Shown here one piece after another: positions 1-3,756 of a stretch of DNA of 9,442 nucleotides. The translations under genes were made by a program, and so were the position numbers. The notes under the pieces are model-generated. The model did not search any database and was not told the origin of the DNA. It saw only the letters and a list, made by a program, of their open reading frames with translations. The stretch is from a virus. Its lineage: Duplodnaviria > Heunggongvirae > Uroviricota > Caudoviricetes. Within the stretch, counting starts at the first letter, position 1. Every line of letters begins with the position of its first letter. The stretch is taken from IMG/VR virus record IMGVR_UViG_2548876961_000016. The stretch is one strand, 5' to 3'.

Positions 1-173
1 TGTCAGTTATCATCTTCGGTTACGGTTATCGGCAGAACGCCCTGCCGCTGACAAGAGCTTATTTGCCTGACCAATCTACTCCACATGATAGATAACTATC
101 ATTTATAACATTTCATTGATTAGTCTTTATTTTTCACTATGTTACAAATAACAACTCCGTCAAAAACAGCGAA

Positions 174-230
174 ATTAACTACACCATTAACTACACCGTT
201 TCACGAACAATATCGAACAACCACGAACAA
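174..230. repeat. Tandem 12-bp repeat ATTAACTACACC x2 followed by three CGAACAA repeats at 10-bp phasing
   Basis: ATTAACTACACC at 174-185 and 186-197; CGAACAA at 204-210, 214-220 and 224-230. Helical phasing suggests a protein-binding array. Confidence 0.55.
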
Positions 231-291
231 AGATCAACACGCTTTAACCGTTATCATTTTCCGGCCATCCGTTATGAAGCTGGTGGATGTT

Positions 292-396
292 CCCCGATAT
301 GGGTATCCCCACCTACCTGGCTTTTTTTCCGGTTAAATGTTAATCAGGCTGGTGGCCTTTACATACCCTTGATCACGGTAATGATGATTCAGGTGC
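292..396. repeat. Copy A of a roughly 105-bp direct repeat
   Basis: About 95% identical to 818-933 over the shared core CTGGCTTTTTTTCCGGTTAAA(T/C)GTTAATCAGGCTGGTGG(C/G)CTTTACATACCCTTGATCACGGTAATGATGATTCAGGTGC. Copy A carries a deletion in the leading palindrome. Confidence 0.7.
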
Positions 397-817
397 GTAC
401 CTTTTCCCCAGTGGGGTAAAAGCTCCAACCGTAACGATGTTCGTTGTGGTTGCCTTGATGGTCTGCGTGGTCATTATGACCATTCAGAATTTGAAGGGTG
501 ATGTTTCCGATCTCCTCAAATTGAGGATTGTGGAAGAATCAATGGGTTAGTCTTACTTTCCCAACATCCCCCAATGGGGGTTTTCGAAATAATCAATGGG
601 TTAGGCCATAGTGCAATTTTGCACTATGGAACAATTCCAACCAGTTATCGGCATCAGGCCCACCAGCCAACGCAATTTTGCGCTTTGCTTTAATCTCAGT
701 AAGTTACCGCGCCAATTTCCGCAGTCTGTGGAAATTGGGAAGAATCAACGGGTTAGGCTGGTTTCCCCGATGTTCGCCGCTGGCGAATTTCGAAAATATC
801 AACCAGTTACCGCCGTA

Positions 818-933
818 TCCCGATATGGTGATCCCCATATCGAGATTGGATACCTGGCTTTTTTTCCGGTTAAACGTTAATCAGGCTGGTGGGCTTTACA
901 TACCCTTGATCACGGTAATGATGATTCAGGTGC
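818..933. repeat. Copy B of the roughly 105-bp direct repeat
   Basis: See copy A. Begins with the CCCGATATGG..CCATATCG palindrome-like element and ends with ...GATTCAGGTGC. Confidence 0.7.
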
Positions 934-936
934 TTC

Positions 937-962
937 CCCGATATGGTGATCCCCATATCGGG
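937..962. repeat. Perfect inverted repeat CCCGATATGG-(6 nt)-CCATATCGGG just downstream of the 307-aa gene
   Basis: 10-bp arms. Related copies at about 819-844 (right arm 8/10) and about 293-312 (right arm degenerate). No U-tract follows on the minus strand, so it is not a canonical terminator. Confidence 0.6.
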
Positions 963-978
963 ATAGATGCTGGAAAAA

Positions 979-1902
979 TCAGCTTTTCGCCAGAACGGTG
1001 ACGGCCTTATCGAGTTTTTGCCATCCGCAATAGGTGATTGCCCTGAACGCTGTAGCGTCATTCTGGAAAAGGCTAACCGCCCCTGATTCGGTTTTTATTA
1101 CCGCCTCATCAGTTGGGGTTATAACCGTGGCTTCAACGTTAATAATCAGCTTTTGAGCGTCTATCAGCATCATGCGATCCGCCTGTTCGCTCACAATTAC
1201 CGGTATTCTCAAAAGCTCTATCTGCCAGAACTCAGCATCAGTAAGCTGTAAGGCGTTTTCTACGGGCAATATTAGCGACGACGTGGAAAGCGTGTTACCG
1301 TTCGCTATGTGCTTTTTGAAAATCTCTATGAAGTTTTCGGCCTCATCAGCACCATTAAGCACGCCCTCAGGGGATACGCCAGCCACCTCCTGATCACTGG
1401 AAAGAAATTTTTTATCTATTTCTTTCACCGATTCCGATGTGATCAAGTCTCTGATCGCTGAATTTGTACCAGGGGTGCTAAATTTGATTAGCTCGTTATT
1501 CAGCATCACAATAGCGCCAAGTTTGCACAATTTTAGCGCACTTTCGTTTACTTCTCCCTCTTTGACAGGGATTTCTTCGGCTTCTTTAAGCCATTTACTA
1601 CCCTTGCCTGATATTGAATGCAATTTTGCGCCAAACGGAAGATTAAGCGCGCTGCTGATTAGCTTGCCTGGTACAGACTGCGAAAAAATATACTCGCCAA
1701 GCTCTCTTACTATCGGCTCTGCCACCAGCGACGGCATGTTATCCGTAGTCATTCTGTTGACGATGGATTTTTCAAGAAATTTCGATACTGCCGGATCATT
1801 TCTTTTCGTCATCTCTATAGCGTCAGCATGGCTAAATTTACACGATGCCAGCACGCTGGCGGCGCGAACTGCTGACACGCCTTTCATGTTTTTACAGATC
1901 AT
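979..1902 (-). CDS. Putative HK97-fold major capsid protein homologue (307 aa); product call tentative
   Basis: Strong RBS (AGGAGGAGGAAGAAG before the ATG). A central segment (LGAIVMLNNELIKFSTPGTNSAIRDLITSESVKEIDKKFLSSDQEVAGVSPEGVLNGADE, then SSLILPVENALQL) follows the conserved HK97-family pattern (SdELl.ds...sYi...L......E...fLnGdGtg..p.Gil, then sGivlNP.dw..i). Judged by eye, not by search. Confidence 0.55.
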   Translation of the reverse strand: MICKNMKGVSAVRAASVLASCKFSHADAIEMTKRNDPAVSKFLEKSIVNRMTTDNMPSLVAEPIVRELGEYIFSQSVPGKLISSALNLPFGAKLHSISGKGSKWLKEAEEIPVKEGEVNESALKLCKLGAIVMLNNELIKFSTPGTNSAIRDLITSESVKEIDKKFLSSDQEVAGVSPEGVLNGADEAENFIEIFKKHIANGNTLSTSSLILPVENALQLTDAEFWQIELLRIPVIVSEQADRMMLIDAQKLIINVEATVITPTDEAVIKTESGAVSLFQNDATAFRAITYCGWQKLDKAVTVLAKS

Positions 1903-2053
1903 CTTCTTCCTCCTCCTGGAAGCACGGGTTTAGTGTTTCGTGAAAATATGGCATCAGAACAGCGGCGGCCTGTAACCGTATTTCGGTCGACTGCTGCTTG
2001 TCGTTCATGATTTCCGTGAGTACATCAATAGGGTCTGTGATGTATTCGCTCAT
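1892..2053 (-). CDS. Hypothetical small acidic-tailed protein (53 aa), not in the ORF track
   Basis: My translation: MSEYITDPIDVLTEIMNDKQQSTEIRLQAAAVLMPYFHETLNPCFQEEEEDDL. GAGGT lies 8 nt upstream of the ATG at 2053; it sits between the TerS-like stop (2065) and the 307-aa gene, overlapping the latter's start by 11 nt. Confidence 0.3.
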   Translation of the reverse strand: MSEYITDPIDVLTEIMNDKQQSTEIRLQAAAVLMPYFHETLNPCFQEEEEDDL

Positions 2054-3530: not shown

Positions 3531-3756
3531 CCTCTACCTCTTCTACCTAATCATCTTTCAGGTCAGTAATGGCGCGGCTTTCAGATGGGTAGAGGACTTT
3601 TCGTGGCCCTCTACCCATCCTCTACCCGCCCCTCACAAACGACCTTAATCATGGTAGAGGGGGTAGAGGGGTTTTATTAGCCTTCTACCTATCCCTCTAC
3701 CCACTTATCATGTTGAATAATATGCGTTTATTTCATTCAGGTAGATGGGGTAGAGG
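3531..3756. repeat. Iteron array (about 10 copies of GGTAGAGG / CCTCTACC in both orientations): putative origin of replication
   Basis: CCTCTACC at about 3531, 3608, 3619 and 3694; variants CTTCTACC at about 3541 and 3682; GGTAGAGG at about 3588, 3653, 3662 and 3749; variant GGTAGATGG at about 3740. Several copies are 9-12 bp apart, with AT-rich flanks, immediately downstream of the primase stop. Confidence 0.6.

Follow-up and report, generated by a model that had tools for sequence, protein, structure and literature searches.

The integrase-distal end of the island

The DNA analysed here (hereafter the window) is a stretch of 9,442 nucleotides from the Caudoviricetes record IMGVR_UViG_2548876961_000016 of IMG/VR. 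The analysis concerns a repeat region near its left end, in which two copies of a long direct repeat, accompanied by short palindromes, bracket a repeat-rich segment. The window is 100% identical to a segment of the chromosomes of O157:H7, O103, and other Escherichia coli that make Shiga toxin (STEC), in the interval between clpS and cspD. On its minus strand it encodes a tyrosine integrase, a D5-type primase, a small terminase of the Terminase_2 family (TerS), and a capsid-like protein. This gene set, together with the site between clpS and cspD in STEC chromosomes, identifies the window as a phage satellite of about 9.5 kb, of the phage-inducible chromosomal island (PICI) type. Satellites of this type are widespread and mobilise genes for virulence and defence; the cis-acting sites known in them are att, ori, and cos or pac.

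The upstream region of host clpS occupies positions 1-91. It is followed by the att core ATAACTATCAT (92-102), which forms the left island junction; the same 11-mer is found at the far junction beyond int (at about 21375 in the locus L001). The P' arm of attP (174-230, plus strand) was detected both by Tandem Repeats Finder and by the repeat search, and consists of a doubled motif, ATTAACTACACC twice at 174-197, and three (A/T)CGAACAA repeats at 203-230. The doubled motif and the CGAACA repeats are found again beside int (L001 21223-21288), and this recurrence identifies those at 174-230 as arm-type sites. On the other side lies the capsid-like gene (979-1902, minus strand, 307 residues), the last gene of the late operon, which matches Pfam Phage_capsid (1.3e-6) and is named 'phage major capsid protein' in RefSeq. 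The repeat region spans from just inside the P' arm to the stop codon of this last late gene, at the integrase-distal end of the island. Between the P' arm of attP and the last late gene, enterobacterial PICIs have a conserved non-coding end module, and the two repeats are two copies of it.

The repeat pair, the palindromes, and a 118-bp polymorphism

The repeat search of the window returned an ungapped direct repeat of 88 nt (314-401 and 851-938, 95% identity), a direct repeat of 28 nt (819-846 and 937-964, 96% identity), and a weaker direct repeat (271-311 and 915-955, 73% identity). The initial annotation had described a direct repeat pair around a repeat-rich segment, and the 88-nt block confirms that this pair is real. 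In the spans given for it, 292-396 and 818-933, the stretch from the palindrome to the 88-nt block differs by an 11-nt indel, with 11 extra bases in copy 2. Chance is ruled out for the repeat by its length and identity, and also because about 1100 E. coli genomes contain this module. The open reading frames across the region (611-880, 678-1001, and 870-1061) match no Pfam family and the DNA is island-specific, in agreement with the earlier view of cis-acting, non-coding rather than coding sequence.

The palindrome is 26 bp long and GATC-centred, with arms of 10 bp (CCCGATATGG-N6-CCATATCGGG). Copy 1 (293-311) is cut back to one arm and 3 nt (CCCGATATGG GTATCC CCA), and its GATC is lost. Copy 2 (819-844) has a 9/10 arm match (CCCGATATGG TGATCC CCATATCGAG). 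Copy 3 (937-962) has perfect arms of 10 bp around the centre TGATCC. The palindromes had been graded as perfect, 8/10, and half-site from right to left; the two outer grades are correct, and the middle copy is 9/10. A decay from right to left describes them poorly. They are better read as different recombinant junctions, and the point at which copy 1 is truncated, CCCCA|CCTACC, recurs in several other islands. Copy 3 was also said to follow the stop of the 307-residue gene directly; it ends 16 nt before the stop codon of this minus-strand gene. It is kept here in every inspected island with this capsid-like/TerS module (L009, L010, L011, and L101), its centre sometimes being mirrored to GGATCA. 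Across islands the centre varies among GGATCC, TGATCC, GGATCA, and TGATCA, i.e. by mirrored single changes. No half-site of the palindrome was found elsewhere in the island. The palindrome alone also turns up by chance in three unrelated high-GC viral contigs. Since each palindrome is self-complementary, a 27-nt inverted repeat is formed as well (816-842 and 939-965), and the segment 816-965 folds strongly (z-scores of -4.3 and -5.1) by the two palindromes pairing together.

Palindrome copy 2 and module copy 2 (851-938) are held in a polymorphic segment of 118 bp (819-936, plus strand). This segment is missing in L011 (strain 9000 and others), where the island end shows 99.9% identity over 846 nt apart from this difference, and only one palindrome separates the array from the capsid-like gene. 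Absence of the unit from otherwise identical islands, with no effect on mobility, had been named as a sign against the earlier reading; it was observed in part, in that copy 2 is absent from this near-identical island end. Records of 633 rather than 751 bases also occur among the E. coli genome matches. The end points of the indel are ambiguous within a 24-nt repeat (819-842 and 937-960). These sequence comparisons indicate that the 118-bp segment is gained or lost by exchange between the flanking palindrome copies. Copy 2 has two diagnostic bases in common with the module of L010, another clpS island, and a left flank like that of L007 and L059, which makes it a recombinant rather than a simple local copy. 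Tandem modules are also present in L006. In the window, the right end of the module is found once more, in degenerate form, immediately before palindrome 1 (271-292), so the tandem arrangement is old and recurrent. The present duplication itself is probably a recent and dispensable product of recombination.

The conserved module and its Chi site

The module has a fixed order, in which the GATC-centred 26-bp dyad is followed by a T-tract dyad and then by an invariant core of about 50 nt with a Chi octamer. In copy 1 (314-401, plus strand), the T-tract dyad lies at 315-333, a TTAA box at 331-345, Chi at 348-355, and a sigma70-like sequence, TTTACA-16-AATGAT, at 358-385. Copy 2 has its Chi at 885-892 and, as the promoter scan showed, the same sigma70-like sequence at 895-922. 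In the alignment of module sequences (A1), the invariant core reads TACC.GG.TTTTT.CC.GGTTAA...T.AATCAGGCTGGTGG..TTTAC, and the sequences downstream of it fall into three unrelated classes. The Chi octamer GCTGGTGG is invariant in A1 and intact in 36 of 38 module variants, a collection that was anchored on this core.

Chi occurs four times in the repeat region, at 279, 348, and 885 on the plus strand and at 660 on the minus strand. The first (279-286) lies directly 5' of the first palindrome, and the same arrangement, AAGCTGGTGGATGTTCCCCGATATGG, is seen in several other islands. The minus-strand Chi (660-667) lies within the array and is homologous to the right-hand Chi of a Chi-palindrome-Chi arrangement in L031 and L070. 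The whole window (9.4 kb) has nine Chi sites, against 0.21 expected from shuffles. In eight islands, the Chi density averages 1.12 per kb in the island parts and 0.26 per kb in the flanks, so that the satellites are 4-5 times denser in Chi than the chromosome around them. The non-coding ends of 50 islands contain 59 Chi sites on the plus strand versus 8 on the minus strand. Over the whole island parts, the strands are about equal (36 versus 35). The adjoining 2.5 kb of late genes show no enrichment of Chi, and there the coding strand is favoured by 80:8. Some islands (L031/L036 and L070-L073) have the palindrome with a plus-strand Chi at its left and a minus-strand Chi at its right, an orientation that would face a RecBCD enzyme entering at a break inside the palindrome.

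Plus-strand Chi sites at this end are those read by RecBCD moving from the late-gene side to attP. In EcCICFT073, the module Chi is the first Chi met from the cosN at L002 9410 heading to att, and the 59:8 strand bias fits RecBCD entry from that cosN. Chi is read by RecBCD from its 3' side (PMC5041463, PMC8791490), and the strongest Chi sites have purines (A or G) at +4 to +7 (PMC5041463).

Other motifs were considered around the module. In the yejO-type islands L099 and L104, several copies of ATGTTAAC / GTTAACAT, some in each orientation, lie beside the palindrome at the place that the TTAA box takes in other islands; they hint at a further binding motif. Although GGTGCGTAC (394-402) looks like the XerC arm of cer, a Xer site was rejected, since other islands do not conserve this sequence and the inner ATAA/TTAT is missing. 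An attC-like reading of GTTAGGC was rejected as well, as there is no inverse core on the same strand.

The dyad-plus-IHF array and its relation to phage roi genes

Between the two module copies (401-815), dyads whose arms measure 6 bp or more around a centre of 3 nt or less were found five times, against 0.42 in shuffles. Three dyads without a consensus for the integration host factor (IHF) come first (401-422, 427-451, and 468-482) and are conserved beside the module in other islands. They are followed by an array of six units (502-815, plus strand), each of which consists of a dyad of 13-27 bp, a gap of 3-10 nt, and then an IHF consensus or near-consensus. Units 1 and 2 have dyads at 514-526 and 568-580 and IHF sites at 537-549 and 591-603, each with a gap of 10 nt. 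In unit 3, the dyad (606-629) is followed after 5 nt by a near-consensus (635-647), and in unit 4 (671-682) after 10 nt by another (693-706). Unit 5 has a dyad at 712-738 and an IHF site at 743-755 (gap of 4 nt), and unit 6 a dyad at 773-787 and an IHF site at 797-809 (gap of 9 nt). Four of the five exact matches to the IHF consensus WATCARNNNNTTR in the window are in this array (537, 591, 743, and 797), all on the plus strand, and each consensus match of the array is preceded by GAAG, GAAAT, or GAAAA. Across islands, the spacing from dyad to IHF site is 9-10 nt in most units. In 30 kb of island ends (n=50), 110 predicted consensus sites lie on the plus strand and none on the minus strand, and they are about 90-fold denser there than in the adjoining genes.

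The dyads of the array differ from one another by paired changes (CCTCAAATTGAGG, CCCCCAATGGGGG, CCTGCATTGCAGG, CAGCCGTTGGCTG, and TTCGCCGCTGGCGAA). Their symmetry reaches to within 1 nt of the centre, and their mismatches (20 G:T or T:G versus 29 A:C or C:A) have no strand bias. These two features indicate double-stranded dyads rather than RNA hairpins, and structured RNA as the primary reading was dropped for the lack of strand bias in the hairpin mismatches. Tandem Repeats Finder detected only the arm-site repeats; the units of the array are too diverged for it. In most PICIs, the last gene before the array encodes a conserved protein of 93 residues (phrog_1561; L002 9064-9345 and homologues), for which no Pfam or PDB relative was found. 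This gene is absent from the window, where its place is taken by the palindrome and module copy 2.

Sequence comparison shows the array units to be homologues of a dyad-plus-IHF site that lambdoid phages carry within roi. Unit 1 shares about 90-98% identity over 43-58 nt with roi of JLK-2012, of Stx1 phages, and of many prophages. Unit 2 shares 87.5% identity over 40 nt with the roi allele of VT2-Sakai and HK629. Units 1 and 2 of this island thus match the roi alleles of Stx1-type and Stx2-type phages, respectively. In HK022, the sole IHF consensus in 5.5 kb sits in roi, 10 nt past the dyad CTGCATTGCAG. The 160 roi loci surveyed fall into five allele forms; in each of them a dyad is followed after 10 nt by WATCAANNNNTTA, and the codons concerned are the same. 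All three roi dyad classes (JLK-2012/Stx1, HK629/VT2-Sakai, and HK022) recur in PICI arrays.

The Roi and Rha proteins are poorly understood and make phage growth IHF-dependent. Clerget and Boccard reportedly found in 1996 that Roi of HK022 binds a site in roi beside an IHF site. Among the roi genes compared (HK022 roi, at L107 2656-3378, and those of L093, L094, and L108-L267), at least five allele forms differ in the dyad and in the adjoining N-terminal sequence, with N-terminal sequences such as KRHDNVKRTIETLAKNG, SRHDKVKQSIERLAARG, SRHSNVKVSIDRLVKRG, and SRPDNVKISIERLAKSG, and an IHF consensus always follows. Such a pairing of dyad and N-terminal sequence would fit allele-specific self-recognition.

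Distribution of the module

Segments matching the region were found in 1108 of 5426 complete E. coli genomes. A positive genome has a median of one place and a maximum of six; 80% of the genomes have none. Every inspected context is a PICI end, except where one unit occurs within roi genes. EcCICFT073 and other phoQ-side islands, including an O157 capsid-forming PICI with HNH, TerS, and TerL, have the module at the integrase-distal end. It lies at the same end in an O26 island, in yejO and tqsA islands, and in an island embedded in a prophage portal gene. Its position is independent of the integrase arm motif and of the packaging genes, and it is normally present in a single copy. In IMG/VR, 80 loci were collected via the flanking gene for the 93-residue protein, and 52 distinct ends among them have at least 300 nt beyond that gene. 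About 44 of these 52 ends carry one module; in the ends that have the arm motif, the distance between the two is about 160 nt. When GTDB species representatives were scanned with the module core, Shigella flexneri was the only positive beyond E. coli, and no cross-genus covariation set could be assembled for this reason.

In this collection, the module is therefore island-specific and family-wide, and is not a miniature inverted-repeat transposable element (MITE) or a repetitive extragenic palindromic (REP) element. The region is highly mosaic between islands. No description of this region, nor of Chi or IHF sites in PICIs, was found in the PICI literature, and both the duplicated module and the bracketed array seem to be without a previous description.

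Other sequence elements of the island

Some further elements of the window bear on its replication and packaging. The sequence GGGTAGAGG occurs eight times in both orientations at 3531-3756, just downstream of the D5-type primase gene, and these repeats are probably the iterons of the replication origin. No copy was found in window positions 1-1000. An analogue of P4 crr was rejected as an explanation of the repeat pair, since the ori iterons are absent from the terminal region.

The motif GTAACTT(T/C)T occurs seven times with 12-nt phasing at 2324-2598, a stretch that covers the 5' part of terS and the DNA just upstream, as three direct, two inverted, and two direct copies. The whole window has 12 matches to this motif, with 3.2 expected. 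A pac site or a TerS-binding array is a plausible identity for these repeats, and they are a better pac candidate than the module. An open reading frame of 53 residues between terS and the capsid-like gene (1892-2053, minus strand) matches the C-terminal part of small-terminase profiles (phrog_641, positions 89-125), and may be a duplicated or split TerS tail. In the P' arm, a sigma70-like sequence, TTGACG-16-CATAGT (136-163, minus strand), is directed at the att core; it would read to clpS when the island is integrated and to int once it is circularised.

Alternative functions of the region

One alternative is that the module is mainly a promoter. In this case, TTTACA-16-AATGAT would fire rightwards and yield a non-coding RNA; transcription from copy 1 would cover the dyad array, and that from copy 2 would run antisense into the capsid-like gene. 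Dyads with three or four T residues after them would act as weak terminators or RNA hairpins, and Roi and IHF in the array could block antisense transcription during helper growth. The sigma70-like site is identical in both copies, and TTTAC is invariant at a fixed distance from Chi. Each of the three downstream classes has some -10-like hexamer at 16-17 nt, and TTT(T/C)CG comes after most dyads of the array, exclusively on the plus strand. The order of dyad and IHF site is also the same relative to this promoter as relative to roi transcription. However, the promoter scan accepted only 13 of 36 module variants, all of class A, and classes B and C reached 8/12. Three promoter-like sites were counted in 1.1 kb, against 2.3 in shuffles. 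An Rfam scan of the window with E values up to 1 returned only a chance snoRNA match outside the region, and single modules fold no better than shuffles (z-scores of 0.4 to -1.7). The dyads are symmetric nearly to their centres, which an RNA hairpin would not need. A role mainly as a promoter is therefore unlikely. The 26-bp palindrome might instead be the core at which a site-specific recombinase (Xer, Int, or resolvase type) acts, serving multimer resolution or inversion, with the 118-bp change as its product. Its architecture of 10-bp inverted arms and a 6-bp spacer is suitable, the indel lies exactly between two direct palindrome copies, and both mirror forms of the centre (TGATCC and GGATCA) and both symmetric forms (GGATCC and TGATCA) exist among islands. 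Satellites packaged as multimers would also profit from resolution. On the other hand, a 24-nt direct repeat suffices for deletion through RecA or slippage, which makes a dedicated enzyme unnecessary, and mirror forms that differ by one base and its symmetric partner fit the drift of a perfect 26-bp palindrome. The att core of the island is unrelated to the palindrome, and the palindrome has no ATAA/TTAT inner arms like those of dif and cer. It is cut back in copy 1 and in many islands while the rest of the module is kept, and the window has no second recombinase gene. This explanation is regarded as improbable.

The packaging and mobile-element readings, both put forward in the initial annotation, fare no better when the region is compared across islands. 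As a recognition site for satellite packaging (pac or cosB-like), the repeats and IHF sites would bend the DNA for the small terminase. The island has its own TerS, the region adjoins the late genes, and TGATCC and TGATCA occur in the palindromes and the module. An IHF site next to repeated elements is found in lambda cosB as well as in P1 pac, and the latter makes use of GATC hexamers. However, GATC is not enriched here (5 in 750 bp, against a window average of 3.4 per kb), and the same module is found in cos-type, capsid-forming, and TerS-type PICIs, i.e. in islands that use a lambda-type cos plus Rpp, HNH/TerS/TerL, or a different TerS. An island with the same TerS and capsid-like genes has no module (L009). 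No match to the cosN-like sequence GGGCGGCGACCT was found in window positions 1-1000 at up to three mismatches. In EcCICFT073, the exact lambda-like cosN matches (L002 9410 and 10149) are outside the module and the array, 340 bp and about 1.1 kb further inside the island than the module, so a cos site in the region was ruled out. The real cos sites of EcCICFT073 lie elsewhere than the module (PMC6739421, PMC6092414). In the window, the phased GTAACTT(T/C)T array occupies the usual location of pac. The module region is probably not a pac site, and a packaging function in general is highly improbable. The remaining alternative is a small mobile MITE-like repeat of about 150 bp (palindrome, 88 nt, palindrome, with 27-nt terminal inverted repeats), or functionless debris of recombination between satellite and phage. 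The inverted repeat with its strong fold, the 'empty' allele in L011, the high mosaicism, and the pieces that match the phage gene roi are in its favour. A mobile repeat would be expected to be dispersed, but no dispersal beyond PICI ends was seen in the collection, nor does the genome search above show a common genome-wide repeat. There is no target-site duplication, and the 'empty' allele retains one palindrome, as from exchange between repeats. The position and orientation of the module are also fixed in most islands. Debris would hardly account for the one-way orientation, fixed spacing, and paired dyad changes of the array, which argue for selection. This last explanation is thus very improbable.

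A proposed composite cis-acting end region

The explanation we favour, at a probability of roughly one half, is that the region is a composite cis-acting end region, in which Chi, sites for host IHF, and sites for phage Roi are combined and which has undergone recombinational duplication. According to this explanation, it would be a protein-binding platform, neither a gene nor a packaging site. The plus-strand Chi sites would face RecBCD coming from the late-gene (cos or pac) side and would halt the degradation of linear satellite DNA ahead of attP and int. They would also load RecA and promote RecA exchange, which is proposed to account for the mosaicism of the region and its proneness to duplication. 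The extra module copy would merely add a third Chi. The array might bind host IHF and Roi-type proteins of the helper phage, so that the satellite end could respond to, or titrate, a protein of the phage lytic cycle, for example as a roadblock to transcription across the island end. The earlier suggestion of a recombination site is upheld in part, in so far as the core contains Chi, the copy number shifts by exchange between palindromes, and the region is mosaic.

Several points weigh against the composite end region. Each of its functional steps is inferred from sequence. Two module variants (L018 and L026) have no Chi, and in the sequence 3' of Chi (G[C/T]TTTAC) positions +4 and +5 are pyrimidines; the invariant TTTAC in place of the preferred purine flank rules out the idea of an optimised Chi. 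The conserved core of about 50 nt is far longer than Chi, and something else must therefore be under selection as well. The island ends that were counted are mutually related, so that the strand-bias counts overstate the independent support. The bias fits the cosN of EcCICFT073, and the packaging direction of the present TerS-type island is an assumption. Helper phages such as lambda make Gam, which lessens the need for Chi in the donor cell. The module is also altogether absent from L009, whose TerS and capsid-like genes are the same as here. As for the array, the link between dyad and roi allele could be mere physical linkage, the dyad being located inside that N-terminal coding stretch, and the identification of the dyad as the Roi site depends on the binding reported for Roi of HK022.

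A more specific form of the composite end region is advanced tentatively, as a possibility that is well short of even odds. The non-coding end of enterobacterial PICIs might be a multi-allelic 'Roi reader', a one-way, operator-like array of dyads and IHF sites copied from the autoregulatory roi sites of various lambdoid and Stx helpers. It would sense or titrate Roi, and would be coupled to a fixed Chi that shields attP and int. The response could be a gating of transcription across the island end, or a disturbance of the phage's own balance of Roi and IHF.

The duplication itself is of little importance, and the repeat pair is an ordinary recombinational duplication. The region around it would be a fourth conserved non-coding region of PICIs, common to satellites with differing integrases and packaging strategies. 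If the sites bind Roi, they would represent a new contact between satellite and helper, in which a DNA array rather than a protein-protein trigger reads a phage regulator; they would also provide a handle on the Roi/Rha proteins. If Chi is functional, it would explain the survival of Gam-less satellites in the face of RecBCD, as well as the recombination hotspots at their ends.

Comparison with known systems

The region shares features with several known systems. P4 crr is also a direct repeat pair of about 105-120 bp in a satellite with a primase-helicase, several kb from an iteron-type ori. In contrast, crr works via ori iterons, which the window region does not contain, and the second copy here is dispensable for carriage. 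Lambda cosB and P1 pac are similar in their repeats and IHF-induced bending near late genes and in the GATC of the palindromes. Unlike them, the module is independent of the packaging module; the cos of EcCICFT073 lies elsewhere, and the present island has a separate pac-like array.

In the BIME-1, RIB, and RIP elements of E. coli, which lie at operon 3' ends, an inverted pair of REP palindromes flanks one IHF site. The satellite region also combines short palindromes and IHF sites just past the last gene of a transcription unit. However, its units have no REP consensus and are undispersed; they are AT-centred 13-27-mers arranged head-to-tail. Chi-rich mobile elements that rely on host RecBCD and RecA include Chi-protected rolling-circle plasmids and lambdoid phages without Gam (PMC8791490). 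The canonical octamer, its over-representation in the island, and its orientation bias in the non-coding end are common features, whereas the satellite Chi is fixed inside a 50-nt conserved block beside attP and its 3' flank is suboptimal.

The closest resemblance of the array is to the internal Roi/IHF site of roi genes, as in HK022 roi and also in rha-type IHF-dependence genes. The sequences are clearly homologous and the 45-bp architecture is alike, with a 13-bp dyad, 10 nt, and WATCAANNNNTTA, and the three dyad classes, CCTCAAATTGAGG, CCCCCAATGG(T/G)GG, and CCTGCATTGCAG(C/G), and even the spacer variants are common to PICI arrays. The phage site is single and lies inside a coding region, whereas the satellite sites are non-coding and number up to about 6-8 in one orientation. 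The satellite arrays also mix allele classes and have perfect dyads, and some of their classes are without a phage counterpart among those found.

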